The notes: generated by a model from the sequence alone, not told the origin. A stretch of 64,000 bases of DNA from a virus (IMGVR_UViG_3300000228_000007), one strand, 5' to 3'; numbered from the stretch's first letter, positions 14,727-56,523 are shown. Translations and numbers: made by a program.

Positions 14727-17700
14727 ATGTTGAAAAAGATAATATTATCATTCATGACAATCCTTTTGGTAACACAAGGTATTTTTGGTATTGCTAAAGC
14801 AGATGAAATAGATGAATTAAAACAAGAATGGAGAAATATATGAAATCAAATATCAACTATACAAGTTAAGTTAGATAATGATTGATCTTTGTATATGCTT
14901 CCTACATATGCTAATATAAAAAATTTATGAGGATTATTACCAGGTTGATGTATTGATGCGGATCTTTTATCAAGTTCTATTGAAGATAAAACAAATGGAG
15001 CTTATCGTATTAACTGTACCAATGAAATAACATTTAAAAATCTACTAAAATTATTACAAGTAACAACCACTCATTCAATTTATGGTAAGGAATTATCTGA
15101 TTTATATATTCCTAAATACTTTATTCTTGAACAAGAAATAAACGTTAAATCAACAAAGGTTTCTATAGATTCTCTATGAAGAATTTGGTATAATAATCCT
15201 GAAAAACAATCTATCATAAAAATTTTTGATCCAGATTTTTGAAATGATTCAGATTGAAATGAATGAACTTATGAAAAAACATTATATAAATATGATTCTT
15301 TTACTCCAAATACTTGAATTGAAGTATTTTGATTAGATTGAGATAGATTATCACCAGAAACGTTAAGAATGTGAACTTATTCAATAGAGCATTATATGAC
15401 ATCTGATGAAAGAGATAAAGCTTATGATTCAACACCATTATTTTGAAGTTCTACAAATACCTTAAAATACACATTAAATTATTTTAATGATTTAATGGAA
15501 GAAAAAGCATTTCGTGAAATTTGTAATAAAAATACATTAACAAATTTATATAAAAATGATGATTTAGCAAATACTATATCTATTAGTTTTCGTAATTTTT
15601 TAGGAGAATTAGATGATAGAGTTTCTATGATTAATAGTTGAGATTGCGGTGGAATAACATGATTAAGAACAACAAATTGAAGTGCAAATTCAGCATATAT
15701 AAAAGATAATTGATCTATAAAAATAAATGTCAGTGGAACAACGCCAGTATTGGATATACTAAGATCAACAACTAATGATTGGAATTCTACAAATAAAGCC
15801 GGATGAAAAGTATGGTTGGCTAATATTGATAAAAATCAATCAGATGGTGATTGGATTAATATTAATGTTCCTAATGTTTGAGTTATATGAAATAAAAGAA
15901 ATTATAGTTCTACTGATAATTCTTTTATTAAAGAATGGTTAAGTGGTAAAACGGTAAAATTATATTATTTAGTTAAAATGACTTCCTATTTTCCATGAAA
16001 ACCTGATTTATATAATAAATATACGTCTTGATTAGATCCCATGAATAATGATTGGTATGATTATAATAATCACTCATGAAATTTACCAAAAAACTATTTA
16101 TATGCATGACACGTTTCAAAAGTTTCAGGAGGTCGTGATTGAGTTTGAGATGCTAACTATTTCGTAATGTTATGATCTAAAAGTCTAGGTAATCCAGAAG
16201 CATCAACAATATATGCATTATCAGCACCTTGATATTCTCAAAAATGAAGTAATATTAGAGATCGATTAACAGATGATAATACTGCTGCTAAAACGCGTGC
16301 TCAGAATTTACATTTAAATATATCTCAATGATATATGGAAACTGAAAGATCTAATAAATCAAATAAATGACCTGACATTACGTTATTGAGTCCAGTTCGT
16401 AATATACCAGATCCAAAAGGTAATACTGTTCATCATTTATTTAGAAATTATGATGCAGATATGGAACTTAATCCAACGTCTAATACTAATAATTATGAAC
16501 AAAATTTAAATTATGTATTAGCTTATGTTTCAAATACTTCAACATTAGCATTTGCAAGAAATTCATTCTCTGCAGACTGATTATTAAATTGAGTGTCTAT
16601 TGCTTCAAAATTTTGGTATAATACATCACAGGATAATGAATTAATTCAAAGAAGTTGAAGCGATGTCTGTTCACCAGATATTAATAATGGAACTTTCTGG
16701 GGTTGATTATATTCATTATATGATTCTTTTAGTGCAAGTTCATGTCCTGATATTATTCAAAAACAAACAATAAGTTCAAATTATAATTGATCAAATTTTT
16801 ATCAACAATTTGAAGCTTGATTAACAAAAGAGTTATGATGATCTCAAACATCAGAGGGTTTATTGCTACAAACAATATTAAATGCTTGAGATGTAGAAGT
16901 TTATAATCAAATTTACACTAATACAAACTATGTTGTTTGATTACCCAACAAGGACCCTATAAAATGTAAAATAGATTTATATAAAATCCCTGTAAAAAGC
17001 AACTTTTGATATGATAATATTTTTACAAGTAAAAAAGATTTATCTACTGATTTGGTTTATTCTACTCCATCAAATATATTTACCAGTAGCCCTGCATCAT
17101 ATGTAGACACTACTATATTAAATTCATTAATGTGAAAAACTTATAATAAACCTGCTGAAACTGCATATAATAATTCTCAATACAAAGGTTCTTCTTGAAA
17201 TGAGCAGGAGTGGCTTTATGGTGAAAAATGAATTGTCACATATAAATGTATGAAAAACAATCAAGATGATGATAATATTGCAGTAACTGTTGTTACATCA
17301 GATAAAAAATACATAAAAACTTGAACAAAGTTTATAGAACAAGCAAATACAAATAAATTATCAACACCACTATTTACATTTAATACAGGGTCTTACTTAG
17401 GTTATAAAAGTAGTGTAATAGAAAGTGATTCAACTGTTTCATCATGAATTCCTTTTGATAATACAAATTGTTCAGCGTGATTTAATAATAATTATATAAT
17501 AAATAACACAATATGATGATTTAATTATACAAAATTAAATGATGCTACATCATGAATTCCCGCTTGAAACACAAGAATTCTTTGAACTTGTCAGGTTGGT
17601 AGATTAACAAAAAATCAATGATTATTTAGATGAGGTATTGAGGTGCAAACAGCAGCGCAAACAACTTTTTGAGCTGTAAAAACTTATGGTAAAATTGACG

Positions 17701-20700
17701 TAATTATTTATGATAAAAATCGTCCATGACAAATTATTGATCAAAAAAGTTATTATATAACTACAACAAAAAAAGATTCAATGGTTATAAGTGCTGATGG
17801 AAAAAATGCTAAATGGACTGACACTACAGCTCGTGGTTCAATAAACCATACTGATGGTATTACTTTCACTATGCAAAATAATTCAACATCTACTATAAAT
17901 TCTACCGACACAACAACATGACTTAATTTAATCATATTTCCTATACAAGCAGCAAAAAAAGCTACGTCAGGAACAATTAATAATTGAGCTTGAATTATAG
18001 GTGCATTAGCATCTTGTACGGCTAATAATGTTGATTGTTGAAATTTAAATGGTTATACAAATACAACTAACTGAATAAAAACTTATTCACAAGATGGTAC
18101 TGCTTATTTAGATTGAGTTTTAGGTGCATGAAATACCGCTTCTCCAAAACTTTCTATTGCTATAAAATCACGAAATTGAAATATTATAAATAATACAATA
18201 GTTTATAAAACAACAAGACATGCTACATCTATTGCCTATGCAATATGAATATCTTGAACACCAGCAACCGAAAAATTTTTAAGAATAATTTTACCTGCTA
18301 ATTATTCAAAATTATGACCTGGTGAAAAAATTGAAGTAACATTAAAAGCTAATACAAATGCTTTTACTGCTATAAATTGGATGAGACCAGAGCAATCACA
18401 AGAAGTAAACCAAGCAACTGCATTTACAGTAATTTGATTAGATGGTTCTACTTTTTTACCTTGAATTAGTTATGCTAATTATAAACCAATAATTATGAAA
18501 ACCATAGCAAATGCTGCTAATCCAGCCGTTTGTAATATGGAATTTCCAACTGTTTGTAGTTGAACAAAATGTATTTGGTCGAGTTGAGATGGTAGAAAAC
18601 TTTACTTATCTGAAGAAGGTATTAGAGCCATTACTGGTGTTCCAACTGCAAAGTGTTGAGATAATATAGGTTGAATAGTTCGTGAATGTATTATTAAAAC
18701 AACACCTAATATATATGCTTGAAATGTAGCCGAAACTACGCCTTATACAGTGCCTTCAAGTGTTTCTTCACCTCAAAAATGAGCATTATATAACTTTTTG
18801 GTTTGATTTGAGTATAAAATGAGGAATTATATAGCGCCAACCTGATATCAATTTGATGCAACAAGATTGTCACCAAAAGCATTCGAAGCAATATATCCAT
18901 TAAAATGAACACCTAGAGTTGTATTTAATGATATAAGTTCTATTGAAAAGAGAAAAGTCATAAAATTTACACAAAACAGAAATAAAGCAATATGACTATC
19001 TCAAGCATCTACATCATCATCTTTAAGTCACACTAATTTTGGTTGAACACCAACATTAACTGCTAAGTCAGTAGCATGATTAACTTCTTGAACTCAAACT
19101 GCCGTAAATAGTATATTTAAGTATCCGAACTTCTGTAACGGTTCAACTGCAAATTGTGATACGACTGCTACTCCATTATGAAATATAAATAATAGTATTT
19201 ATTATTGAGTAAAATGAGTATCTAATGGTAATTCACAAGCAACGGCTTTTATTGAATTTTCATGAGATTCATCTAATTTAATAAACGGATTAGATTTTAG
19301 AAATACTACATGTAAAGTTTGAACAGTAGATTTCGTTACGGCAGATCCACCACCATCACATGGTTATTGTAATGTTTTAAGTCAAGAAGTTCCTAACGGA
19401 TCTAATAATATAAACGTATGTGACCCTAATGCTTCATGAATAGCTACAAACAACTCAATATCACTTGAAGAAGATTTTATACCTTGAAATTATGTTAAGT
19501 ATATACTTCAATGCTGAAATGATGGTTGACAAGATTTTGAATGAGATTTAGAATTTAATATCTCAAATTTTTCAAACTATGCATTAAACGCTTCGTATTT
19601 AATAAGTAATGGTTGAAGTCCATCTATATCAACAACATCAAATTCAGTTAAATTAGAAGGTGTTACTATCCCTTGAAATTCAACATCAAATGTCGAATTA
19701 ACTGTAAACCTAAAAACAAGAACTCCAAGTTGTCCTGATAATTTGCCTGATATGACAACAAATGCAAAACTAACATCTGCAACTTTTCAAAGTGATTTAC
19801 CTTCAACAACAAACTCATTATCATTTAGGGAATGTAAAGTTCCAACATTAAACCTTAACTGAGTTAGAGTTACTGACTGAAATGTTAATAATGATATAAT
19901 TCAAGACAGTTATACTAGTGCTTATCCATTTGAGTTTTCTCAATGTGGAAATCAATTAAGATACGAACTAGAGTGAAACTATGAATGTTATGAACCAAAC
20001 TCTGCTAAAATAAGTGTAACATATGATGTATGAAATAAAACTGATGGAATATGATTATGAAGAGATCCTGTATCAAGTATTTTTGCTTGAAATTTATATA
20101 CAGTTGCTCCAAATATAATATGAACCACATGAGTTAATTGGAATATGTGATGATATAATCATGTGTGAAGCCCATCAGGTTCTTTTTGACCGAGTGTATC
20201 AATTAATCCAACAGCATGATGAGATTTTAGAATGACAAATTCTTCATTTACGGTTTCAAATGTTGGTTCTCCTAATACGAAGATTAAATCACCTACTGGA
20301 GCATTTACTAAAATAAATTCAACACAATGGTTATCTTCACCTATGAATATGCAAATTGGTTTAGACCCAGTAGTTTCAGGTCAAAAAATTTATGATAATT
20401 GAATATATCAAGATACAGACTTTAATACTGTAAAATTACATAAAGAAGAAATTGATGGAACATCAAAAAAAGTTATAAAAACTTGAACTGGAAATTATGA
20501 ACCTATTATATTTGAGGCAAAAGTTGATAACCCTATAAAAAACCAATCAACATATTGAATGAGCCAATTAATGTTTGATATGTCATTAAATCCAAATACA
20601 GCTTCTTACTTTGATAAGGTTGATACAAATATTCCTACTTCTTGAAGCAATATATATGTAAAATATTGAGAACCATTATGGCAAAATCAAATTTTAGCGC

Positions 20701-23700
20701 CGGGGAATTCAATAAGTTATAAATGATGATTTAATGTAATACCTAATTTAAAAACACCTAATTTAACTCCTGCAAACACTTTATATCAAGCAAACTGAAC
20801 TCCTATGTTAAAATTTGCCAATGATCAAGGTGTGGCGTGTAATTTTAATCAATGATTTACGAATTGGACAAGTGAAATAATGAAAAATCCTATAACTATA
20901 TCAAGTATAACATTTGCCGATGAAGCACCTAATTCTATAACACCTGCTACAGATGAAATATCAGGAACTCCATTTGAACAACACTTACCTTGAGATACTA
21001 TATTATTAAACATATTGTTTAATAACAATAACTCTACAAGAAACTTTAATGATACTTATGTAAAATTTACATTTGATAATACATGAAGTTGAAAAATTGA
21101 TGTTCCTGCTATGAACTTTGATTTCACAAAAATATTTACAGTTCAATGAGTAGAATCTTGAGGGTGGATTACATTAAATGATAATTCTGCAAAATGTAAA
21201 GTTACGGCTACAACATTAATGTGTCAATTGATAGATAAAATAAATTATCAATCTACAAAAACATTAAAAATACCTTTACTTATAAATATAGAAAGTAATT
21301 TCTATCAACAATTAAAAACACAACCAAATACTAAAAATTGGAAATATTGGTATCCTACTGTGATTTCAAAAATTGAATATGGAACTCCTGATTTGAACTT
21401 AATAAATAATGTTGTTTATTATACTTCTTGAGAAAATGAATTACCTTCTGGTTGAATAAGAGATGATATTGAAACAGATGACTTCAATAATCCAATAAAC
21501 AAAACTCTTCCTGCTGAACCATTAGATTGAAAATATTCTTTCTATGTAGGTATGCCATATGCATCTATTGTAACAAGCTATTATAACGCTTCCGTTTGAA
21601 ATATATCACCTTGAGATATCTTGGTTTATAAAACTAAGATATCTAATATAGGTAAAGCATCTTTAAAAAATCCATATATTTTACAAAATCTATTTCCATT
21701 AGGATTAAAGGATAATTGGGTCGATGTTGAAGTTAATAAAGTAAGATTTACACCAAGATTAAATAAAACAAATATTTGACCTGAGGTAACAATAGACTTT
21801 AAAGCATTGAATACTGATGCTAACGCTACTAATGATGTTGATGTAAAAAATATTTGAATAATAGCGTTTAAAGAATGATTAGATGTCGATAAGTTTGATG
21901 TTTCTGTTTGAAATAGAATTGATACAAAGGCTGATAAAGAATTTGTTTTAATAGACGGTTCAAATACATTAACTGACGGTTGAGATATTGAACTTACTAC
22001 TGAAATGAAAATAGTAAAATTAAAAAATGGGAAAAGACCACAAATTGATTGTACTTCTCCTACCTCATGTTTGAGAGCAAATAAAAATCCTAAATCAGAA
22101 GAAGTGAGATGAGCAATAGATTTACCATTTGTATGAACATCAGTAGATGAAAATGATACTAAAACATATAGTGTTCATTTTCCTATATTAAAATCACAAT
22201 TATTTGCTAAATCATGAAATGATTATAGATATACTGACTGAGCAAATGCTGAAATTAAAGGTATGTTAAATAATGATAATACTACGGTAACATATAGACT
22301 TGATAACTTTATATCTCAAGAGTATACAAATCACAATACTGAAAAAATAGGTAAAGCCAGAAATGTTAAATCATACGTAAGACTTCCTATGTGAGTAAAA
22401 TATGTTCCAGGTAGTGTTAAAAGAATTGATAATATAGTTGACGGTGTTAATGATCCCTTATATAATACGATAACTCCTTTAGTAACAGATCCAATAATAA
22501 CAGAATACTCTGATTATGGACTTATTAATTGGACTTCTACAAATACATTTGATAATACGTTTTTAACAAACACTGATTGGAACAAAGTTCCTGGTTCAAA
22601 TGATAATCAATTTCAATATATGAAATGAACGCCATTTAAGTTTAATTACTTTAATAGAAATTATAACTATTATAGAATTACTGATGATGGTGCATTAACA
22701 TTGGGATATGTTGTAGATCCAATAAATCCTACAAATTTGAATGAATCACAATTCTATACAGATAAAAGAAATTGAACAATGCATACTACGTGACCAGTTA
22801 GTATTACTTTTGATAGAATTAAACAATGATTAATAATACCAAACGGATTACAATATACTAACGAAAAATGAGAATATAAATTGTCAGATGGTATAAATCC
22901 TATTACTGTATGAAAAAATTCTACTATTACTTTAAATGGTAGTAATACGGTATCGTTTACACAAGGTCTTGAAGGTGTAACTTACATTTGAAGTAATGTT
23001 GATATATTTAAATCAAATATTGATTATAATACCATTGCTACACAATGGAAAAATTATGCTATAATATCACCTGCTTTCATAAAACTTGATTTAACTAAAA
23101 AATCAGAACATGGTGTTTATGAAAAAGTAGTTAGAGATTGAGCTTGAAAAGTTACGGAAATATGGTATCAATGGTTTGGTTATGTTGAATGAACTAATAA
23201 AGAGGTTAAGTTTGGTATAGTATTATATAACTGAACTAAATATAATAATATTAAATTTATTTATGGTGATATAGATAATACCTTAACTATACCTATAATA
23301 TCTTGATTATCTTCATGAAGATGAAATGTTTCTTGAACATATTCTTTTAGTTCTTATAATGGATTACAATTAAGAAATCTTTCAAATAAGGATGATATTG
23401 AATTTGATGCATCACCAGTAAATGTGTATCAAGAATTAGTATTTGATGTATGATATCCTGCAGATTGAGCAGATGCTGTGAGTGATCCAGTAGTAATGTA
23501 TCAAGAAAAGAATTCATTAGGGGCTTATGTAAAATGACCTGGTAAAGACCAAACTTCATACATATTCCAATTCAATGTAAGAATTACTACAACAGATTTA
23601 GTATGTTGAAGCGAATACTCAACATCAGATGGTTGAAATACTCTTTCTTGGGGTAAAATATCTTCTTCAAGAAGTGATAAGGATGATATAGACCAATTCT

Positions 23701-26015
23701 GTTTTTCTTCATTAAAACCTTCTATAAAAATACTGGATAATGGTTCTTATTCAAGATGAGGTTATAAAACATCATCAAATAACTGTACGGTTAATCACTT
23801 ATCTCTTATGTGATTTAATGCAAGAGCAATCTGATGGAATAAATCATTGACATCAGCATGATGTTGGCTAACTTATAATATTCAAAATGTTCAAAAAGAC
23901 CTTTCAATAAATACAATATCTCCTTATGACTTATTGGCAAAATTCAAAGAAAAAACTGATATTAGACCAGTAGATACTTCACTAACATTGAATGATAAAA
24001 AAATAACATTTACATTATCAAAAGATATAAAAGTTAAAACTTCAATGTGAACATATATAGATATAAATACTTATATTCCATGATTTCAAAATCTTGGTTT
24101 CAAAATCTTAGCAAAAAATGTATTCTTTATATATGGTAATGATTCTACTAATTGATACTTATTAAGAAGTTCAAATGAATGAGATTCTTATGATATAATA
24201 TATAAATCAGTATGAAAGAAAATAGTAAAATCATATATATCAGATATATTAAATATTATATTCTTCAATGATTGAAAATTTGTAAGAGATACAAATGGTG
24301 GTTCTTGACCTTGGTCTTCAATGATGACATTGGTTGATTACAATTGAATAAATGATATATGATTTTTAAGTAGTATGAATTGATTTGTGTTATGAAACAA
24401 TTGAATTATGTGGAAAACTCAAGATGGGGGTCAATCATTTGAAAAAATTAACTTAAAAGTTACTAATAATCTTTGAATAGGGGAAAGTATTACAAGTATT
24501 GATACGTATGGATGAAAAGATATATGGTTATCTACCTCGCTTTGAAATGTATTATATAGTTCAAATGCATGAACTCTATTTACAAAGAAAACTTCATGAG
24601 CTAGTGTTGATACTAAAATATTCTGATATGAAGATTGAGCTCAAACAGCTGTTAATGTTAGTGTAAATAATGTAGTATGAAATACTATGCAAGGCGTAGA
24701 TACTATTGATAATGGGATGTCTATTAAATTTGACAACCTTAACTTTATGCTTACCGGAAAATGATACAAATGAGTATCAACGATCATCCCCGCAAATGGT
24801 GAAATGTTGCATTATACAACGACTAATATAATTGACTTTACTCCCTATATTACAAATAACTATGTTAATGCCGATTTATATTTAGATGTTTATGTTTCAA
24901 ATATAGAAAAGACAGGAGATTTATGAGATATCGTATTTAAAGATAATGGTCAGACAACAACTTTGTGAATAAGTGATGTTAAACAGTTCAATATTGATGG
25001 TTCAAATACTTTGAAAACTTGATGGAATACCATTAAAGTTCCTGTAAGAAATTTAAATACTCCTTGAAAATGGGATCAAAGTTGAAATAACTGGGCTAAT
25101 ATAAGTCGTATTGAAATATGGAATATTCCTTCCGCAAATAAAAATATGCAAGGTTCATACTTTGTAGTAAGTAATCTACGCTTAGCACCTATTACAAATC
25201 TTTCGAATATACAAACTGTATATTTATTTCCAGATTGAAATATGTCAAAAGTAGTTCAAGATGAAATTATAAGCTTTAATGGTGTTGCTAATACAAGTAA
25301 TAGATTTTCATTATCTGCATTCAAAAAATCAGATAATACATTAGACTGATACTTAACATTAGACTTATATGTTTCTGATACATCTGCTGAATTTCCAAGA
25401 GCATTAAAGTTATGAAATTCTAATAATAATGCTATTATATGGAATAATCTTGCTACGTTTGTAAAATGATGAACAGTTAAATCTTGATGGAATACTTTAA
25501 TATTACCATTTAAAGAAACCTGAAATTCAAATATTACTTATACTAATAAGTATGATATAAATTGGTGAAGTATTGATTTATTTAAGATATTCATGTATAA
25601 TACGACTCATACAAAATATTCATTATTCGCTATTGATAATATAATATATTCATCAACTGCAAATACTTCGTTTAATTTTATAAGATTCTTTAATACAAAA
25701 GAATGAGTTGCTTATGACCAAAATAAAACATATATAACATCTGATAATATTACTTGGTGAAATAATGAAGTTCATACAGAACCATGATTATCATTCATTA
25801 ATATAGTTAGATTGAAATGACGTGAAGTTTATGGAGTTGCAAATTCGTCAAATGGTTGGATATCATATTACTCATTAGACAAATGAAAAAACTCAAAAAA
25901 ATATTCTTCTGCTTCTTGAATTAACTTTAACTCTTTTGATGCTTTTGACTATGATTATTGATTTTCAATATCAAGTAATAATAAACTTTATAGAATGGAT
26001 TTAGTCCCAAATTAG
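14727..26015 (+). CDS. giant secreted surface protein (~3,760 aa), N/S/T/G-rich with repeated C-terminal modules
   Basis: A single frame-3 ORF from ATG 14727 to TAG 26013-26015 when TGA is sense; track fragments 16386-16580 and 21219-21431 share the frame. Signal peptide MLKKIILSFMTILLVTQGIFGIAKA. No TAA/TAG was seen on manual read-through. C-terminal modules repeat the motif G(W)NT(I/L)..P... Confidence 0.7.
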
Positions 26016-26758: not shown

Positions 26759-27799
26759 TGAAACTTTTCATTCATTAAATGTATCAATTCTTACATATCA
26801 TATATTTCAAAAATCATAAGATCTATCACACCTTATAACAACATCGTATAATTCTTTAACACTTGGCTTTTCGTGATTATAGTAACTATCTGCTTGGTTT
26901 CACCAATGTCAAACAAGCATTCTTATTATACCTTGAGATTTTAAGTATTTTTTTAATGTATTTATATAAATAGTGCTATCTCATTCTTTACCCCAATAAT
27001 ATTTACTGTTATTATACCACGTTGGAATAAAATGAGTTATATTTCACTTCATACTTGCTGATTTAGCTTTATTAATGATTTTTCATTCATTTTCCATTTT
27101 TTCATATATAACTTCTGCCATCCAATTATCTATTACTGAAAGTCTATATAAAACTTTTTCATCAAGTCTCTTAAATCATGCATTTATTTTTTTATATAAT
27201 CGATTCAATCTTCATAATTATCACCTTCAATCCACTCATATTTTTCCCCTACAATAGGAACCGTCTGATAAAATAGGTAATCATCGATGCACTATTAAAT
27301 GTTTGTCTTGAATGTTTAATATATTTCATTTTTCAAACAAAAAATCAGCAATAAAATCAGCATAGTCTTCCCATTTTTCAAAAGTGTCTTCATATCAATA
27401 CTCATGAGTAAAATCAGCATTTTTATAATTAGCTTTTATCGATTCAAGAGTTCTATCCCACCATTATAAAATAATTGGTCATAAAAAATTCACTGTAATA
27501 TTTCACGAGATCTTTCATCTTTTATATTCTCTATTGATAATTTTTTTATTTTACTATTTGAATTTTTTATGCATTCACCATCAAAGTATGAAAAATAAAT
27601 CATGATTACCTAAAGTAATAGTAATTTTATCATTTTTTGCCATTTCTAAGACAGTTTGAAATACTTCATGGATGTTTAGTCATCTATCAAAAATATCTCA
27701 CGCTAAAACAAATTTTTCATCATTTCAGTATTTTTCTTCAAGCATTTTCACCATAGGTTTGAAATTTGGGCTTGAGTGTATATCTGCTATCACTATCAT
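26759..27799 (-). CDS. PPP-family metallophosphatase (Ser/Thr phosphatase or ApaH-like)
   Basis: MIVIADIHSS (GDxHG-like), LAGDIFDRG (GDxxDRG) and LGNHD (GNHE) motifs in order. Stop TAG confirmed at 26759-26761. Confidence 0.6.
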
Positions 27800-29977: not shown

Positions 29978-30667
29978 TTAAATTAAAAATAACTTTTCTA
30001 TGGCTTGTTTTTCTCCAGTATTTTTTGTTAAACTACTATTTACTGATTTTTCCCAAACGCAAGTAAAATCTTCTGGTGCATTATATTCACTAACAAATAT
30101 TTTATGTCATTTCTTTTTCATATTTCTACACCATTGCCAAAATTCATCATGATTAAAATTTCAATTCAAATATTTCGTAGTTCATTTATACGGTGGATCG
30201 CAATAGATAATACTTTCTTTTGGTATTTTTAATTTTTTATAATCTATATTGTAAAACTTAATTCATTGTAATGATGGTTTTTGTTTATCTATATTTTTTA
30301 TAGCCTCTTTTGCATAATCCCTTTTTCAAATAGTATCTTTTCTATATTATCAAAAAAACTTTGCTCAATATGATAATTGAAATCAAGTAAATCAAACTAA
30401 CCAATTTGAATATTCACTTTTATTATCTTTAATTTTTATATATTTATCATGATTAACATATGGTGTTTTTTTATTCTTAAGCATCCATTTGAGTAGTGAT
30501 ATTAAATATTTATTACTATCATTTCCTATTCTATTTCAAGTTACTTTATCTATAACATTTGCTCATCAAACAAATGATTCAACATACCATTGTCAAATTA
30601 TTCTATCTTTAAGTATGATTGGTAATATTTCATTTGCAAATTTTCATTTGCTTCACATATATTTCAT
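29978..30667 (-). pseudogene. Dam/D12-family N6-adenine DNA methyltransferase interrupted by an in-frame TAA (30347-30349)
   Basis: N-terminal half MKYMGSKGKFANEILPII...FVGGANVI...NDSNKYLISLL and C-terminal half ...IIYCDPPYKG...IFVSEYNAPEDF are in the same frame, separated by one TAA. That TAA aligns with the Arg of the conserved FNVPFGRYK block. No ATG follows the TAA. Confidence 0.55.
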
Positions 30668-40157: not shown

Positions 40158-42471
40158 TTACTTATTTGTAAGATTATAATTATTAAGATCATCGATAATT
40201 TGATTTATGTATTGTTCAATATAAATCCAATCTGGAACTATATTATTTTCTAAGTCTTTTGTTACAGGTAAATATATTTCTAACTTATTCAATTCATTAT
40301 CATTTATACCTTTATCGTGATTAAACTCTTCTTTAAATTTTTTCATCATTGTAATAATGAATAATCAATGATTTTTATTAAATTTATTATAATTACTTTT
40401 TAATACAATGATTGATGATGTTTTATAAAATTCTTCTTCTTGATAAAAAGCTAATCAAGCAGCGCCATCCCCATTTTTAACTAACGTTAACCTGTTTCAC
40501 TTAAATGGTTGTTTAATACTTTTTATCTTTTTCATTGAAACGGCATTATTATATTTTGCCGCAATCACTAAATTAGTGTTTCATAATTCACTTGATTGAG
40601 ATGATTCAATACCTCAAATTTTATCAATACTAAACATATCCATAATTTTAAATTTATTCCAAAGTACATTAGATTCCTTGTTTGGATATACACAAATGTT
40701 ACTTTCACCTTCTAAAAATTTTAATACTTTATAAGAATTAGATATAATTTCTGAACCATCTTTTTTATAAACTATATTTGAAAGTGGATTTTTAAATAAA
40801 AAATATTCAATTACCGATGCCCTAAATAGTTTTTCATTGAATAAATATTCATTTAATGGTAAATGATATTTGATATCATCAGTAGGTTTAATCCACTGTA
40901 TAGAATCGTCTCCACTTTGTTTATATATAATATCAACCCATTTATTTTCCAATGATTGCCACTTATTATTTATATCTAACCTTCCTTTGTTTTTTACAGA
41001 TACTAAACCATCATCTTTAATCCAACACGTAAAAATATCACTATTATTTTGTGGAACGTGTGCTTTAAAAATAAAAATAGAAGTATTAACATTAGCCATT
41101 CATGAAAAAACATCAGGAAGTTTTATTATTTTTTGGAGTGAATGTTGATTAAATACTTTTTTAATCCAATTAATACCTATCCCGATTGATAATTTTGTAT
41201 CAGGTAAAATAAATGCACAAATAGCACCATTTTCTACATTATCTAATACATTTTTTACTATTTCTAAACATCCATAAGCATTTTCATATGGGGGATTCAT
41301 TAATACTTTTGTAATATTATTTAATTTAATCCAATTTCCAACACTTTCGGTTCTACTATCATCTTGAATTATATTAGTCTTTCAATCTTTATGAATAAGC
41401 ATATTTGCACAAGCTAATGCATATAATTCCTTCGAAAATTCAACACCAAATAATCTTTTTTCTTTAATTATTTCAACAGACTTATTATTGTTTGGTCATC
41501 CAACTTCATTAATCATATAAGACATTGCTTTTACTAAAAAAGCACCACTTCAACAACTAGCATCTAAGACATTATCCGTATAGTTAGTGCCTGTAATTCT
41601 ATAAATTAATGATGTTATATGATCTGGCGTAAATACTTGTCCTTGCTCAGATTTACCTTTATACCTTGTAAACTCATTAAAAAATATAGCCATTACATCT
41701 TCACCATTCCAGTAAGGACTATTTAAATTTTCAGATATATTATTAATACATTTTATAAAATCATTTATAGCATTTTGATTTTCAGTAGAATTACATTGAA
41801 TAATTTGGAACTGATCGGCAACCAAATCTAATTTAATATTTTGTTTTTTAACATCTTGGTAAGATTTTTTTATTGTTGATAAAATTGACGAGTGCAAAGT
41901 TGACCAATCCATATTTATTGACAAACAATTTTTATTATATCTTTGTGCTACTAATGCACAAGCTGTAAAAATCATTCTATGATATAAATTATTAATACCA
42001 AAATTTTTATGAAGATTATGGTTTATACTTTCTGTTAAAGAATATATTTGTTTTTTATTTATAATATTATTGTTATATAACGATATATAGTATTCTTTTG
42101 TAAATAATTGATTTTTTAAATTAACTAATATTTTATTTTTATAAACTATCACATCTATACCATTATACAAAATTCCAATTACTTTATCATATTTTGTAAG
42201 CGAAATATCTATATTTTTAAATAATTCTTGTTTGCAAGTATTTTTATTTATATCAATATCTGAATTTTTAGTTTCTAAAATTATAGCAACATCATCAAAA
42301 TTATTTGGTAAATACCACCCATCTGGTTTGTCAGCAATTCATTTAAACCCCAATTGATTAAATGTTGTTAATTGACCTACATCACATTGGCTATCTTTAT
42401 CTTGATAAAAATTTAATAAAATCCTTGCTTCATCGCGAACCTTGTCTTCTGTTTTTTTCATAATTATATAT
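40158..42471 (-). CDS. single-polypeptide RM-like enzyme: N-terminal PD-(D/E)xK-like motif, HsdM-like gamma-class N6-adenine methyltransferase, C-terminal HsdS-like TRD (Type IIG / Type I M-S fusion-like)
   Basis: One continuous minus-strand ORF of ~770 aa that joins track ORFs 41550-42170, 41100-41300, 40614-41099 and 40158-40349 through TGA codons. MTase core: GQVFTPDHITSLI (motif X), VLDASCGSGAFL (motif I, the G after C is TGA), NPPYEN (motif IV). C-terminal end ...LPVTKDLENNIVPDWIYIEQYINQIIDDL resembles an HsdS conserved helix. N-terminus has DKPDGWY ... ILETKN (candidate PD...ExK). Confidence 0.7.
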
Positions 42472-42506
42472 ATATAATAATATATATTATTATCATATAT
42501 TTTTAG

Positions 42507-42542
42507 AAAAAATCAATTTTTTTTAAAAAAAATTGATTTTTT
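42507..42542. promoter_or_regulatory. 36-bp perfect palindrome aaaaaatcaatttttttt|aaaaaaaattgatttttt in a divergent intergenic region
   Basis: Read directly. It sits between the minus-strand RM-like gene start (42471) and the plus-strand gene start (42596), next to an (AT)n tract. Confidence 0.45.
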
Positions 42543-42595
42543 CTATATTTAGAATATTATTCTCTTAATTTTTATTAAATAAATCAAATTAACAT

Positions 42596-43336
42596 ATGGC
42601 TAATATCGGGAGAATACATTTTCAGTTAAAAGAAAGTAGTGATGAGTCTCTTACAAAGGAAAAATTAAAACTAATAAATGAAATTATAACTAAAAATTCA
42701 AAAAAAGTAGGGTCCAGTACATCTTGAGTGATATATATTACATCTCATTTTTTAGAGGAAAGTGAAATTATGCTAACTAAAGAACAAGAAGAGTCTGACA
42801 AATACACATGGGCATGGATTGATACAAATGAACTATCAGAAGATTGATTAACTTTAGATATTGAATGTTCTACAAAATGGACTATACCATTTTTTGTTCC
42901 AGGACTTATTTCCGAAAAATTTGGGATTAAAATAAAATGTGGTTATTATATGGAGTTTGATTGATACTGAGATGTTGTGTTTAAAAATGGTAAAGCTATT
43001 TCTGAGCATTATTATTCTATGAAATATGAGTATGAAAAAAGTTTAGTAAAGAATTTTTATCCAATAATAAAAAATTGAAACGTTCTTTTTAAGAAAAGAA
43101 AGAAAAGATTAATGAAAAAGATATTAAAATCAATATATGATAAAAATAATATAGAATCATATATAACACCAAAATTAATTTCTGATTATTGATATTCTGA
43201 AATACAAGTGTCAAAAATGTCGTTTTCAAAAAGAGAAAAGTTATTCAATTCGTTACAAAAACTAAAAAATAGTGATAAAAACAATAAAAGAATAAATAAT
43301 ATAGATGAAATTACCATTGAAGATATCCCATCTTAA
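42596..43336 (+). CDS. hypothetical protein (~246 aa)
   Basis: ATG 42596 to TAA 43334-43336. No recognised motif. Confidence 0.45.
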
Positions 43337-43351
43337 AATTTAAGAATACCT

Positions 43352-43882
43352 ATGACTAAAATAATTAACTTAATTTCTTGACCATGAGTTTGAAAATCAG
43401 TTATTGCTGCTGAAATATTTGTTCAAATGAAAATTTTATGATATAATGTTGAATATGTTCAAGAGTATGCAAAAAGCTTAATATGGACTAAAGATTTTGA
43501 AACTTTAAATAATCAGTATTTTGTATCTCATCAACAATATAAACTATTTAAGTCAATGATTGGGAAAGTTGATTATATTATAACCGATGGCTCTCTTGTT
43601 CATGGTTTGTATTATAATCAAATAAATACCGATAATACATCAAATATTGAAAAAACTGATAAAAAAATTAAAGAATATATTTCGGAATTTAAAAATATAA
43701 ATATATTTTTAGATAGAAATCCTGAAATAAAATATGAAGTGGCGTGAAGGCTCCAAAATTTTGAAGAAGCAAAAAGCGCAGATATTGAAATTAAAAATAT
43801 TCTTAAAAGTAATAATTATCCTTTTTTTGATATTATATCATCATTAAAAAACGTAGATAAAATATTAAAAGATATACTGTAA
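43352..43882 (+). CDS. P-loop NTPase (nucleoside/nucleotide-kinase-like or AAA_28-like)
   Basis: N-terminal Walker A LISGPGVGKSVIA and a later hydrophobic-D block DYIITDGSLVH. Track ORF 43556-43747 lies in the same frame. Confidence 0.5.
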
Positions 43883-44068
43883 TTTTGATTAAAAACAAAA
43901 TTATAATTACACATATTTATGTAATATTTAACTATAAGAGTCTGATATAAACATTGACCATTATGTTGAGATGGAACAATGTATGACTTCAAAATTAATG
44001 AAAATAATGAATTAATCTTTGACAAAATATCTGGTAACTGGATGTCTTAATACTTATTTATAAATTGT

Positions 44069-44839
44069 ATGGAAAAAATGCTTATTTGAAGTTGTCTACT
44101 TAAAGAACTATTCCCAGAAGAAAATATTAATATTCATGATATTGATTATGCTATAAGCGAATGAAATTTTTTCGTTGAAAAAGATACTATTACAGGTAAA
44201 AAAATAGAATACCATCCAATACCATGTTTATTTAAGGAAGAATATTCAAATTGTAATAAATTAGATGTTTTATATACATTAAAACTATCACATTCAATAA
44301 GAGATATTAAGTATGATAAAACAATATTAGATATTGACTTTATGATATGAAAGGGAGCTAAAAAAATACCAAATTTATTAAAAGATCTTTTAGATTATTG
44401 GGATGTTATACATTGAAAAAGAAAAACTGCATATTTTATGAAGGAGAATGAAAACTTTTTTGAAGATAAAGTAAAAAGATTAATGCCACATGATGATTTA
44501 CATTATTTAATGAAACTTAATGATGTTGAAATGTATAAAATAGCAAAGAAAAATGATAGTTTAGCTATCATAAATATGGAAATGTTTTTTAATTTAACAA
44601 AAGAACAACAACTTGATATGATTAAAGAGGAGGTTGGTGTTATAGCATTAGAAAGGTATATGTTTTCTTGAATTACAAAAAATATAGAAAGTGCCATTCC
44701 AAAAGCAATGAAAGATCTTATAATAAGAATGTTTTGACCTATAACAGCAATGTTTGTTGTAGAAAACTATCGTGAAATCAGAAAATCAAAAAAAATGAGA
44801 GAAAAAATGAAAGAAATATTTGAAAAATATGCTAATTAA
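44069..44839 (+). CDS. minimal nucleotidyltransferase-fold protein (Pol-beta-like) with C-terminal helical domain
   Basis: LIGSCLLKELFPEENINIHDIDYAI fits the hG[GS]x9-13Dh[DE]h NTase signature. Track ORF 44438-44671 lies in the same frame. Confidence 0.45.
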
Positions 44840-44884
44840 CATTATATAGTATTTACTTTATTATTATAATTAACTAAAATTATT

Positions 44885-45556
44885 ATGGATTATTTAAAAA
44901 TTGTAGAAGCCGTTATTAAAAAACTTAATGACTTTGAAGAAGCTACTTATTGAGAAAATTTACCTTCTGAAAATTATTCAGATATAGAAGGCTTAAAAAA
45001 TGTAGAAAGTCTTGGTGATTATACTGCTCATGGTGGAGGTTTGCACGATGGGGATGATTATGAGGTGGTATTTAAGATAGTTACTACTGACTGAAAAGAA
45101 TTTTTCGTAGCAAAAAATATGACATATTCTTCATGGGATACAGGTTACTCAAATATTGACTTTAGAGCAGTTTCTGAAAAGAAAGACACAAAAACTTTCT
45201 TCGTAGAAGAAGAAAGACCAAATAAAAGAACTGAATCCCAGTTAGCAACTATTTCAGGAGTTATAGCCATACTTAATGCTAATAGTAAATCTGATTATGA
45301 CTTTGACATTGAAAAAGTAAAATCAATAACTGGTGTAAATAGTTTTGAATATAAGTGCGATTATGCTGATGATGGTTGAGAAGTTGGTGATGGCTCTTCA
45401 TACGAAGTTGTATATTCATTAAACCTTTCGGATATTGAAAACGAAATTTTCATTGGGAAAAATATGACATACTCCTCTTGGGATTCTGCATATTCAAATA
45501 CTGAATTTAGAGAATTAGTTAAAAAAGAAGAAACTTATACTTATTACGCAATATAA
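44885..45556 (+). CDS. hypothetical protein with internal domain duplication (KNMTYSSWD(T/S)(G/A)YSN..FR occurs twice)
   Basis: Two ~100-aa halves, each ending in the near-identical peptide, read directly from the translation. Confidence 0.45.
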
Positions 45557-45566
45557 GTATATAAAT

Positions 45567-45600
45567 AATAAAAAGAGTAGATTTATTAAAATCTACTCTT
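45567..45600. terminator. hairpin agagtagat/atctactct with A/T runs, convergent terminator
   Basis: aaaagagtagatttattaaaatctactcttttt. Confidence 0.55.
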
Positions 45601-45700
45601 TTTATATGGTTATTTCATACCAATCAACCAATTTTCTAATGTCATTTTAGAAAACCCTATGAATCAACTACTTCAAGAGACCAGTATTTTCATAGAATTT

Positions 45701-46778
45701 TTATTTTTAATTAATAATTTGTAATTACTAGATGTTCTACATCTTTATTCTTTTCATTTCTCCTACGCACTTCATATGCATATTTTTTATCAAAGAATTT
45801 TATATTAATTCATTCTTTATTGTATAATTCAAATATAAAATCTGTATTTTTTATTACAACCATCCATTTACAATTTATTTTTATAAGACAATCTCTTAAT
45901 CTTACCTGATCGTTTTTATTAAATTCATTGTTATCATATTTTGAAAATTCCGTATCATAAGGAGGATCTAAAAATATAAAGTCATTTTCAGTAAATGATT
46001 TATCATATTTTGAAATAAAATCATAAAAATCAAGATTGTTTATATTAGTATTATTGAATAATTCAATAGTATCCTTTTTTGTTATTTCATTTATTTTTGA
46101 AAGTATATTCTTTCAATTATAAGAAGTTCAACCATAAGGTATATTAAATTCTCCTTTTGAATTATATCTAAACATTGATGCATAACAAAACTCTCTAACG
46201 AAAAACCAATATGCTGAATATTCAATATTAGAAATTCATTTTTTATATACTTTATTGATAATACCTCTAAAATACATATAAATACCTCATTTTACAGCAG
46301 TTTCTATATGATCGTCTAATTCTTTATTATTAAATACTTTTCATTCCTTCACAAATATAGCCAAAAGCCTCTTTTTTTTCGATTTAACAGATTTTATAAT
46401 CTCTTTGTACAGTTCGTCAGTAAAAACATTTGAAGTATTACTAAGCTCAATATTTTGACTTGTATTATCATATGAAAAAAAATCTAATAACTCTTTTTTA
46501 TTACTAATAATAAAATCATTACTTGCATCCCATTCTTTATTTACAATATTTAGGTAATTGATAAACTTAACATCTTTTACAGATGTGTAAAAGTTAATAA
46601 GATCAACACTTCTGTCATTTATATAATATGATTTTCATAATTGTTTATTTTGTAATTGAAAAAATACTCAACCACCTCAAAAAAATGGTTCAAAATATCT
46701 ATCAAACTTTGGTAAAAACGCTTCAAAAAATTTGAATTCATCAAATTTTCATCAAGTCCATTTAAGTAGTGGTCTCAT
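45701..46778 (-). CDS. Dam/D12-family N6-adenine DNA methyltransferase (third copy, intact)
   Basis: MRPLLKWTGGKFDEF (FLKWAGGK-like), EPFFGGGGVFF (motif I), FNIPYGG, FLDPPYD (motif IV). Confidence 0.75.
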
Positions 46779-48703: not shown

Positions 48704-49456
48704 ATGAAAACTAAATTTGGAGATAGAATGAAACGATATGAAAGTGAGCTTAATTATACTGTTGATACAACTAAATATACAGTTTTAAGACTCGACTGAC
48801 ATTGATTTTCAAAATTTACTAAAAAATTTGAAAAACCATTTGATATGAGAATTTATAATATCATGAACAAAGTAGTAGAAGATTTATTTTATGAATTTAA
48901 TCCGATAACATGATTTACTCAATCTGATGAAATAACGCTAATATTCAAACCTTCAGAAAATTTTATATATAATGGTAGAATAAATAAGTTGCTTTCTTTA
49001 ACATCGGCTTTTGCAACTGCTCGTTTCAATTTTTATTTATCTCAAGAATTAATAGGTTCTAATGATGAAATTCTTATTAATAAAATTTGATTAGCATTTT
49101 TTGATTGTAGAATTATGTCTATGCCTAATGAAACAGAAGCATTTAATATGTTGTTATGGAGAATGAAAGATTGTGCTACAAATAGTAGAAATACTTATTC
49201 ACAAGAATATATATCTTATAAAGAACTACAAGGTGTTGCAAGTTATGATGCTATAAAAATATGCAATGAAAAAACTTGAAACGATTGGAATAATTTAATA
49301 GAAGGTCTTAAATATTGAACATTATTTAAAAAAGCAGACTTTATAAATAATGAAGGCTTTTTAAGAACAATCGTTAAGCAGTTTCATATTGATATGTCTT
49401 TTAGTGAAGAAATGGTAAATTTTATGCTTTTAGACAAGATACCCTTAAATAATTAA
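48704..49456 (+). CDS. Thg1-like protein (tRNA-His guanylyltransferase family; 3'-5' nucleotidyltransferase)
   Basis: YTVLRLDGHGFSKFTKKFEKPFDMRIYNIMNKVVEDLFYEFNPITGFTQSDEITLIF matches the Thg1 N-terminal signature (RxDG..FhkF....KPnD ... SDE), with G of RLDG and HG as TGA. Start and stop verified. Confidence 0.7.
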
Positions 49457-54988: not shown

Positions 54989-54995
54989 CATAATT

Positions 54996-56523
54996 ATCTT
55001 TTTAAGTATTTTGAACCGAAGTTTTCAATTTCTCTTACAATATTATTATCCTTATATGAATCTAAAGCATCAATGTATTGGAATATTTTGTCTGACCAAC
55101 CTTGAACAAGGTAAACATTATTCATGTTTGAAACCTTTGTACCATATCATCCAACATCAAAAATGAAACATTTTATATTAGGATTAACTTGGTTCATGTA
55201 ATTTTTAAGTTCTTTTTCAACATTAGCAACATCACAAGAAGAGTTATACATTTGACTATCAGAAAAGAACATTATTGTGTCTACGAATAGATTTCTTTTT
55301 GTAAGTTCTTGAATTGCCAAGTATCCGTTAGTTGAATAACCAACTTCACCATCTCGATAAGAATCAAATATATCAAAAGCACCAGTAGGATTTTTTAATT
55401 TAACTGAATCACCGAAAACACCTGCAACACTGTATGGAGAAACTGTTGCCGCAATACCAGTATATAACAGTCCTATATCTATCATTTTTACTGTAGATTT
55501 TGGGTGTATATTATCGGTCATAGAACCTGAAACATCTGCAAATACAGCAATTCTATTGCTTAATTTAGTGTTTTTTACAGAATATAAAACAGCCGTAGAC
55601 AATGCTTTTTTAATTACATTAGAATATAAGTTATTTGGTAAATTCTTATATGCAGAATAAAAACGGAAAGGTAATTGTTTTGAATTTTCAACAGCATTTT
55701 CATTAGAAATGTAATTTGCTATCATAGAAACAAGGTTATCAGCGTCATCTCTATTTACTGAAGCAAATTTATCTGCAACTTCAAGAATATTTCTTAGATT
55801 TCTAATTGTGGCCATATAACCAAGTTTTTTGTTTAAAACAAGATCATACCATACATAAAACACATCAGTAAGGTATGTTTCTGTATTTTTTGGAATAGAT
55901 GAAATAATCCTTTCCCAAGTATAAGGTTTTTCTACTGTGCCATCTAATACTTTTTTTGCAAGAACTGAATTTGGATGTATGATACGAACAACATCTTTTA
56001 GATTAATAGCATAGTTTCTATCATATTTTCCAATTTGATACTCATCAAAATTATTAAATGCCTTAGCAAGACCTTTAATTAATGAGTGCGATAAAGCACC
56101 ACTTTTTGCTCTTTTGTTTACTTTACCTTCTGGTAATAGGTATCCTAATATTTCAACAATATCATCAATTCTTTCAACAGAATCAGCAATTAAATCGCTA
56201 AAATAAGCATTTTCACCATTAAAGTATTGTGAAAGTTCACCAATAATCACATGGCTCATTGTACGCATATTATAAACTTGTCTAACGTAAAATGCTAATC
56301 CAAGTACGAAAGAAGGATTTTTATAAGCTAATTGGCTTATTAAATTTTTAATTTTAACAAGTCTATCATCTTCTTTTTCATAAAAAGAGTCAGTTAAAAA
56401 GTTGGAAACAACCGCTCCAAGAAGTTCAAGTTCCAAAGATAAAGAATAAGCCCTTTCTCCTTCATGATTTACTGTAACGTTATTTACAGTATTCATTACA
56501 TTTTTTGATCCGAATTTTGGCAT
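54996..56523 (-). CDS. rsr: Ro60/Rsr ortholog (TROVE domain + vWA/MIDAS)
   Basis: Track ORF 55147-56523 extends through TGA to TAA at 54996-54998 (~509 aa). vWA MIDAS ADVSGSM is present. Overall length and architecture match Ro60. Confidence 0.75.

Follow-up and report, generated by a model that had tools for sequence, protein, structure and literature searches.

In the MntA-HepT system, a nucleotidyltransferase (NTase) physically engages its partner protein and nucleotidylates a tyrosine of that partner. AbiE and MenAT are chromosomal toxin-antitoxin (TA) loci, in which the NTase gene (AbiEii or MenT) has the gene of a winged helix-turn-helix (wHTH) antitoxin (AbiEi or MenA) directly upstream. 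RlaP and the phage CCA-adding enzyme, found in the RNA-repair cassettes of phages, are template-independent NTases of the polymerase-beta (Pol-beta) superfamily (PMC7824862). A further family is already held in Pfam (DUF7275 and DUF7277) and in PHROGs (PHROG 6944), as uncharacterised DUFs. Here we present an analysis of one member of that family, gene g3, and of its partner gene g4, in a 64,000-nucleotide stretch of viral DNA (IMGVR_UViG_3300000228_000007) that we call the window. The two genes stand at the end of a block of four co-directional plus-strand genes at 42596-45556: g1 (42596-43336, 246 aa), g2 (43352-43882, 176 aa), g3 (44069-44839, 256 aa) and g4 (44885-45556, 223 aa). A first-pass annotation of the window, made from its sequence, had proposed that the four genes make up one undescribed defence or repair system. 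We find instead that g3 and g4 are the only conserved functional unit of the block, and that g3 is most likely an active-looking minimal Pol-beta-superfamily NTase and the core enzyme of this module. The block as a whole is, in our judgement, somewhat more probably than otherwise a patchwork of mobile accessory genes of viral type, carried by a replicon that uses genetic code 25, and not a four-gene system.

Code 25, in which TGA encodes glycine and not tryptophan, is used throughout the window. Open reading frames (ORFs) of at least 100 codons cover 69 kb when TGA is read as sense versus 10 kb when it is read as stop, and calls under table 11 break the window into short ORFs; the GC content is 20-30% (about 22% overall). 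The assignment to glycine follows from the conserved motif glycines that TGA supplies: those of the Walker A motif GPGVGKS in g2, of motif I (DASCGSGAFL) in the methyltransferase (MTase) domain of a neighbouring restriction-modification (RM) gene, of EPFFGGGGVF in a neighbouring Dam-like MTase gene, and of the GS motif of g3, where the glycine is near-invariant across the family. The proteins of the window are given here as table-25 translations, and in these all four genes of the block are present as ORFs; every feature listed by the first-pass annotation hinges on taking TGA as sense. Public copies of the proteins (P0001, P0010 and P0157) are translated with TGA as tryptophan, and so have wrong residues at catalytic glycines such as that of the g3 GS motif.

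By profile comparison g3 is a clear member of the DUF7275/PHROG 6944 family. It matches DUF7275 (PF23940) at 9.7e-32 over residues 67-243 (110.8 bits, cut-off 27) and phrog_6944 at 1.1e-34 over its full length (residues 1-242 on a profile of 257 positions). The protein is laid out as an N-terminal, DUF7277-like region with a GS...DxD pattern, followed by the helical DUF7275 domain that is specific to the family. Its N-terminal ~85 residues give no report for DUF7277 (PF23942) at E <= 1; the region aligns well and shares GS...DxD. In the homologues DUF7277 is weak or below threshold (3.8e-5 in P0062, where it scores 24.7 bits and the cut-off is 27). The residues G7-S8 of the GS loop and D24-x-D26, the predicted metal-binding pair, are invariant in 9 aligned sequences and near-invariant in 148, and the GS...DxD pattern is found in 44 of 46 distinct homologues of g3. 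The spacing from GS to DxD, 15 residues in g3, is slightly above the classical 9-13. On the modelled third strand, most members have an acidic residue, E46 ('IEYHP') in g3, at a place where the alignment is loose. The DUF7275 domain has invariant motifs of its own, namely K/S/H, HDxLH and EE..VIALER.

The structure was modelled on a natural fusion homologue, P0062 (375 aa), with 148 family sequences, and the model reached a mean predicted local distance difference test score (pLDDT) of 90.8 and a predicted template-modelling score (pTM) of 0.89. This high pTM suggests that the two domains of P0062 pack in a defined way. An alpha/beta core fold is common to the g3 family and to solved NTases, the figures of the structural comparison being 8.2 for MenT1, 8.0 for MenT4 and 6.9 for TglT/MenT3. 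The g3 family belongs, as a distant branch, to the fold class of the Pol-beta NTases and stands outside every characterised family; NCBIfam gave no match for any of g1-g4. The Pol-beta-type motif that the first-pass annotation had picked out in g3 survives, and the NTase call is upheld because the fold class and the GS and DxD residues of the homologues agree.

The partner of g3 is as telling as the enzyme. In the g4 protein, an alpha+beta module whose signature is GG.G.G..Y.V(F)...Y.SS(W/Y)D occurs twice in tandem, at about aa 1-112 and 113-223; identity between the halves is 38% over 105 aa (BLASTP E = 2e-21), in agreement with the ~100-aa duplication that had been noticed earlier, and no Pfam family matches them. 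Clustering of the neighbours of g3 homologues showed that their main companion, present at 18 loci, is a protein of 96-142 aa whose gene follows directly downstream and often has its start codon overlapping the stop codon before it. A profile made from these +1 neighbours alone matches g4 twice, at residues 18-107 (31 bits) and 151-222 (24 bits); g4 is therefore a tandem duplication of the companion module. The companion adjoins 18 of the 22 short-form g3 homologues (<= 300 aa) and none of the 22 long forms, and 32 of the top 150 family representatives carry it as a C-terminal fusion to the enzyme. In BFVD, Alteromonas phage PT11-V22 has the fused form (TM 0.85) and TunaTartare gp210 is one example of a free module, while KVP40.0036/0037 is a pair from a cultured phage. 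Because the module is elsewhere encoded beside the enzyme or fused to its C-terminus, it is very probably a physically associated subunit of the g3 enzyme. A search of cultured phages with g4 itself (tblastn) gave no match, the relatives of g4 being seen by profile only. An AF2 model of the database copy of g4 (P0010) had a pLDDT of 51.6, and MAFFT forced its repeat 1 onto the NTase region of the fusion proteins. A relative that comes from a different sample and is 84% identical retains both the g3-g4 junction and the duplication, and the ratios of nonsynonymous to synonymous substitution (dN/dS) against this relative are 0.19 for the C-terminus of g3 and 0.23 for g4, so both genes are under purifying selection.

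Homologues of g3 were gathered from a protein index, an exhaustive profile search, IMG/VR, GTDB and cultured phages. The family is large: clustered at 50% identity, it comprises at least 1,794 clusters by the exhaustive search, of which 1,030 reach E <= 1e-30. It is also overwhelmingly viral, with 50 loci in IMG/VR against 4 in the genomes and metagenome-assembled genomes of GTDB (one of these being the same contig as a viral locus), and it occurs in 190 to 524 cultured phage genomes, whose carriers include KVP40, T4-like, Gordonia and Streptomyces phages. Proteins of 508-571 aa with a DUF7275 domain are encoded by giant eukaryotic viruses (Satyrvirus A0A3G5AE53 and Sylvanvirus A0A3G5AJ90, in BFVD), and the family is therefore not confined to bacteriophages. 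Two further observations concern the long, unpaired forms. About 1.7 kb downstream of three of them (L016, L018 and L025), at matching relative positions on three different viral contigs, ARAGORN calls permuted tmRNA genes with tags of the ANDN...AA type. Directly upstream of others (among them L047, L057 and L059) are three small protein families, at 9, 8 and 5 loci, with strongly acidic tails that end in an aromatic residue (...EEETSSSW, ...ESSSY, ...KPSY) and that recall the C-terminal tails of single-stranded-DNA-binding proteins.

Since the g3/g4 pair is so largely viral, a host defence system is not its natural reading. The same distribution bears on the explanation that g3 and g4 form a TA or abortive-infection pair of the MenAT/AbiE kind, in which g3, as the toxin, would arrest growth by blocking tRNA acceptor ends, g4 would neutralise it as the antitoxin, and the two would serve as a defence or addiction module beside RM genes. 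We hold this to be quite unlikely. The family resides mainly in lytic and jumbo phages, KVP40 among them, extends to giant eukaryotic viruses, and is rare in cellular genomes (the 4 loci above); a toxin would not usually be fused to its antitoxin as often as enzyme and partner are here; the partner lies mostly downstream, not upstream, and is no wHTH antitoxin of the AbiEi/MenA type; and neither Pfam AbiEii/DUF1814 nor any PADLOC profile is matched.

What the pair might act on is suggested by the company that it keeps, which in several independent lineages includes genes of RNA repair. At one locus (L005), an Rnl1-like ligase, a polynucleotide kinase (PNK) of the AAA_33 family, g3 and g4 are joined in one operon. 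At another (L004), the pair sits between six upstream tRNA genes and a downstream set of RlaP, a phosphoesterase, a PNK kinase, a PNKP phosphatase, Rnl1 and an Rnl2-like ligase. In TunaTartare a gene annotated as 'RNA ligase' is directly upstream of the pair, and in BrutonGaster five tRNA genes lie 0.9 kb downstream of it. With the loci of the g2 family serving as a control set of viral accessory neighbourhoods (n=36), tRNA genes were found at 8 of 19 paired g3 loci versus 5 of 36 control loci (p = 0.024) and versus 1 of 27 unpaired g3 loci (p = 0.002); for tRNA or RNA-repair genes taken together, the counts were 10 of 19 against 6 of 36 (p = 0.007). Genes of the RNA ligase/PNK type stand beside the pair in only 4 of the 19 paired loci. 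The enrichment of paired loci for tRNA and RNA-repair genes is thus suggestive. In the window, the pair is 3 kb from a gene for a Thg1-like tRNA 5'-end polymerase (48704-49456, plus strand) and 9 kb from a Ro60/TROVE gene (54994-56523, minus strand), and both Thg1 and Ro/TROVE figure in the literature as RNA-repair functions that large phages carry sporadically (PMC7824862, section 3.4.9).

On this evidence we propose that the g3 enzyme would transfer nucleotides from NTPs onto the 3' ends of RNA, most plausibly tRNA, that the partner module of g4 would provide substrate recognition or regulation, and that the pair would belong to an RNA-repair or translation-conflict toolkit of large phages. 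An RNA or tRNA 3'-end NTase with a specificity or regulatory subunit is, as we see it, a serious possibility whose chances fall somewhat short of even. We put forward a broader form of the idea tentatively, as the less probable claim: that DUF7277-DUF7275 enzymes and their partner are a new and widespread class of virus-encoded two-subunit RNA 3'-end NTases, which would repair, cap or re-tail tRNA acceptor ends against host toxins that target tRNA (MenT-like NTases, toxSAS pyrophosphorylation and CCA-end nucleases), with the partner selecting the RNA and the copy with the duplicated partner found here being domesticated or resident.

Several points weigh against an RNA 3'-end NTase. The association with RNA genes is modest and drawn from small samples, and it is biased towards the g3 set, whose loci supplied the seeds of the RNA-repair profiles. 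In KVP40, the pair is surrounded by genes of dNTP metabolism (td, dut, MazG and DexA), not of RNA repair. The 64-kb window holds no RNA ligase, PNK, HAD-PNKP domain or tRNA gene, and no paper mentions DUF7275 or DUF7277. As to the enzyme, its third catalytic carboxylate is not cleanly aligned, and the model is that of the 35-40%-identical fusion homologue P0062 and not of the window protein; the likeness to solved NTases is remote, Foldseek returning nothing from the Protein Data Bank (PDB) at E <= 1e-3 and the g3 sequence profile finding 0 matches there.

Another explanation is that g3 nucleotidylates a small molecule or nucleotide, whether in viral nucleotide metabolism or in the destruction or mimicry of signalling nucleotides, or else modifies the Y-S-S-(Y/W) motif of its own partner by NMPylation, as in MntA-HepT; the g2 kinase might then feed the same chemistry. 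This explanation seems doubtful to us. Genes g2 and g3 are never linked elsewhere, tRNA and RNA-repair genes are more frequent at the paired loci than at the control loci, no specific family of small-molecule NTases is matched significantly in sequence or in structure, and NMPylation of the protein is pure inference from the motif. Transfer of nucleotides to RNA 3' ends is accordingly the activity that we prefer for g3.

How far the pair can be tied to the two genes before it was examined by synteny, from both sides. None of 80 loci of the g2 family (509 kb) carries a g3- or g4-type gene, and none of 64 g3 loci contains a relative of g2 by profile; the g3 loci have no relative of g1, of g2 or, by single-sequence search, of g4. 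The arrangement g1-g4 is found in this lineage only, so that the conserved co-occurrence for which the first-pass annotation had hoped is not seen, and the genes are not syntenic in other genomes. Likewise, PADLOC (database PADLOC-DB v2) run on the table-25 proteins has no match below E = 0.01 for g1-g4 and reports the RM and Dam genes only. There is something to be said for the idea that g1, g2, g3 and g4 jointly form one defence system, or one system of nucleic-acid end healing and sealing with a kinase, an NTase and accessories. The genes are co-directional and tightly spaced, with a palindrome and a strong terminator as their bounds, and in one phage lineage (L005-L009), which has an operon of Rnl1, kinase, NTase and partner, the gene just before the g3 homologue encodes a P-loop kinase. 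The kinase of that operon, however, is of the PNK-like AAA_33 family whereas g2 is of the AAA_28, deoxynucleoside-kinase (dNK)-like kind; g1 lacks relatives, the block encodes no ligase or sealing enzyme, and g1-g2 are parted from g3-g4 by a gap of 186 nt. The reciprocal synteny tests essentially refute the four-gene system, and we regard it as very improbable. Of the earlier comparison with end healing and sealing, the link to RNA repair has some support, in that some relatives of the pair have RNA-repair neighbours; g2 is closer to deoxynucleoside or nucleotide kinases than to polynucleotide kinases.

From its sequence, g2 looks like a P-loop protein of the nucleoside- or nucleotide-kinase kind, independent of g3 and g4, with a substrate predicted by family only. 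The kinase-like P-loop reported at first pass is real: the Walker A motif GPGVGKS occupies residues 10-16, AAA_28 is matched above its gathering score (9e-7, 29.7 bits against a cut-off of 27), as it is by 4 of 4 family members, and phrog_2107, 'thymidylate kinase', is matched at 1.7e-13. A single-sequence search of the PDB with g2 gave noise only; the best solved relative of a family profile built from four sequences was the deoxyguanosine kinase 2jaq (E = 5e-4, residues 5-116), in a match that spans the P-loop through the substrate-binding region. An end-healing polynucleotide kinase was considered for g2 and rejected in favour of a protein like dNK or nucleoside-monophosphate (NMP) kinases, given the match to 2jaq; a profile search found no AAA_33, Zeta_toxin or PNK match in g2, and the AAA_33 neighbours of g3 homologues are a separate family, none of which the g2 profile matches. 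Relatives of g2 are present in 85 cultured phages, mostly jumbo, and at no fewer than 390 metagenome loci. The closest of them, at 53-61% identity (L079, L081, L085 and L088), are on contigs of 19-27% GC with Cys-rich, zinc-finger-like ORFs, which may come from other recoded organisms or from large eukaryotic viruses.

The first gene, g1, is an orphan neighbour of unassigned role whose linkage to the other genes is unsupported. Its C-terminal third is basic and Lys-rich, and its match to DUF1281_C is borderline (1e-4, 22.6 bits against a cut-off of 22.8). Among 5.8 billion proteins it has no relative but its own database copy, nor were relatives found in cultured phages by tblastn, in metagenome DNA or beside g2 homologues. 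Proteins of ~250 aa upstream of g2 homologues in two rhizobiophages were considered as relatives of g1 and rejected as unrelated.

The layout of the block, as the first-pass annotation drew it, stands with small changes to its coordinates. The palindrome that separates the RM gene from g1, given there as 36 bp at 42507-42542, is a perfect palindrome of 38 nt at 42506-42543 (centre 42524/5, 19-bp stem, z = -6.3). It is unique in the window and the longest palindrome there. A candidate operator, it occupies the intergenic region from which the RM gene (start at 42461, minus strand) and g1 (start at 42596, plus strand) diverge. An independent assembly (L068, from Logan SRR8203764, 99.9% identical) starts inside it at window position 42510; hairpin trouble during assembly could account for this break, as could strain variation in the upstream RM gene. 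A non-coding gap of 186 nt between g2 and g3 (43883-44068, plus strand), read from the sequence and absent from the earlier annotation, has a weak hairpin just 3' of the g2 stop codon, with an 11-nt inverted repeat at 43880-43903; promoter-like matches in this region do not exceed chance frequency. The gap and its weak hairpin suggest that g3-g4 may be transcribed apart from g1-g2. The strong convergent terminator, placed earlier at 45567-45600, is a hairpin at 45568-45605 (z = -6.3 and -8.2) whose 17-bp stem is perfect, whose loop has 4 nt and which has T-runs on either strand. It makes a convincing bidirectional intrinsic terminator, closing g3-g4 from one side and the convergent Dam gene from the other.

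Both DNA-modification genes that flank the block are context, outside the g3/g4 module. The fused RM enzyme (40158-42461, minus strand, 767 aa) has a gamma-class N6-adenine MTase domain (NPPY) and a type-I-like target-recognition domain, with matches to Pfam N6_Mtase (3.2e-21) and Methylase_S (8.5e-8) and to PADLOC REase_MTase_IIG (1.1e-35). Set against the type IIG plan, the MTase and target-recognition domains are present, and a putative N-terminal nuclease is suggested by a PD...ExK-like motif, 'PDGWY...ILETK', spotted by eye. On the other side, and convergent with g4, the intact Dam-family MTase first noted at 45701-46778 is a Dam-like D12-class N6-adenine DNA MTase at 45711-46778 (minus strand; Pfam MethyltransfD12 6.7e-27, PADLOC MTase_II 4.4e-50). 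The window has two more D12-class genes besides it, one of them truncated. At 29978-30667 (minus strand), a Dam-like N-terminus of 106 aa (MKYMGSK...FVGGANV) is followed by a TAA/TAG stop and an in-frame ORF of 123 codons, and this may be a disrupted third gene of the class.

The rest of the window carries genes of replication, repair and nucleotide metabolism (DnaG, a TopA-type topoisomerase, UvrD, Tmk and a DnaQ-like exonuclease) together with a CHAP hydrolase, an M50B peptidase, MscS and SPFH, an apparently split Metallophos gene (27436-27799) and a 490-aa AAA-ATPase_like protein (PF09820; 53054-54526, plus strand). An 800-aa protein at 9868-12270 (plus strand) fuses an FtsK/SpoIIIE-like P-loop ATPase to two RusA Holliday-junction-resolvase domains (Pfam RusA 1.3e-19, two stretches), an unusual architecture. 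A giant ORF of 3,762 aa (14727-26015, plus strand) encodes a secreted protein with an N-terminus like a signal peptide, and at 27-30% its GC content is above that of its surroundings. Scans of the 64-kb window for tRNA genes and Rfam families found 0, Y-RNA included, so the RNA partner of the TROVE protein, if any, goes unrecognised by Rfam; there are no ribosomal genes in the window, and PHROGs found no virion genes. The JGI contig TB_FS06_10DRAFT_1000015 is 99.5% identical to the window and represents a sister strain, a variant and not the same molecule. It terminates within the giant gene, and its call for the AAA-ATPase_like gene is 538 aa against 490 aa in the window, so the two strains may differ in an indel or in where the gene starts. 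A further 7 kb of right flank, with an Eco57I-type gene and hypothetical genes, is uninformative on the type of replicon. The replicon may be a region of a chromosome, a large plasmid-like element or a phage, in a code-25 host of the Gracilibacteria/Absconditabacteria type.

What is new here is the assignment of the family to the NTase fold, its obligate and uncurated partner domain, which can be adjacent, fused or duplicated, and the Rosetta-stone fusions that join the two; new too are the split into short paired and long unpaired forms, the tendency of the paired form towards tRNA and RNA-repair genes, and the duplicated partner in a code-25 replicon. An anonymous DUF, of a family that is large and found in > 500 cultured phage genomes, thereby becomes a concrete candidate for a two-component enzyme. 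If it is true that the enzyme acts on tRNA ends, it would be a new player in the conflict between phage and host over the translation apparatus. Close co-directional spacing beside RM genes is, in this block, no sign of a four-gene defence system.

The g3/g4 pair can be set beside the systems named at the outset. Membership of MenT/AbiEii is not borne out for g3, with no PF08843 match at E <= 1, no PDB profile match to MenT at E <= 10 and no AbiE call by PADLOC. Its C-terminal domain differs, with the invariant motifs HDxLH and EE..VIALER of its own; where AbiE and MenAT have their antitoxin gene upstream, g3 has the AAA_28 gene g2, past the gap of 186 nt, and its partner is an unrelated alpha+beta module, mostly downstream and often fused. 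Those systems are chromosomal, whereas the distribution of g3/g4 is viral.

MntA-HepT likewise joins a minimal NTase to a small adjacent partner, and by analogy the invariant Tyr/Ser-rich motif of the g4 module may recall the modified tyrosine of HepT. Unlike HepT, however, g4 has no HEPN domain or Rx4-6H motif, and neither component of that system is matched in Pfam or PADLOC. RlaP and the phage CCA-adding enzyme resemble g3 as Pol-beta-superfamily NTases of large phages encoded near RNA ligases, PNK and tRNA genes, and g3 homologues hold positions comparable to those in RlaP-type cassettes at L004, at L005 and in TunaTartare. Yet g3 matches neither RlaP (PF10127) nor PolyA_pol, and its homologue is not a replacement for RlaP, because L004 carries a true RlaP too. 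In contrast to RlaP, g3 also has a dedicated partner module, and ligases are neighbours in a minority of g3 loci. The closest likeness is to the DUF7275/DUF7277, PHROG 6944 proteins themselves: KVP40.0037, BrutonGaster gp8 and the fused protein of PT11-V22 share with g3 both its motifs and its partner module, and the present locus differs from them in having two tandem copies of the partner in a single protein and in lying on a replicon that uses code 25.

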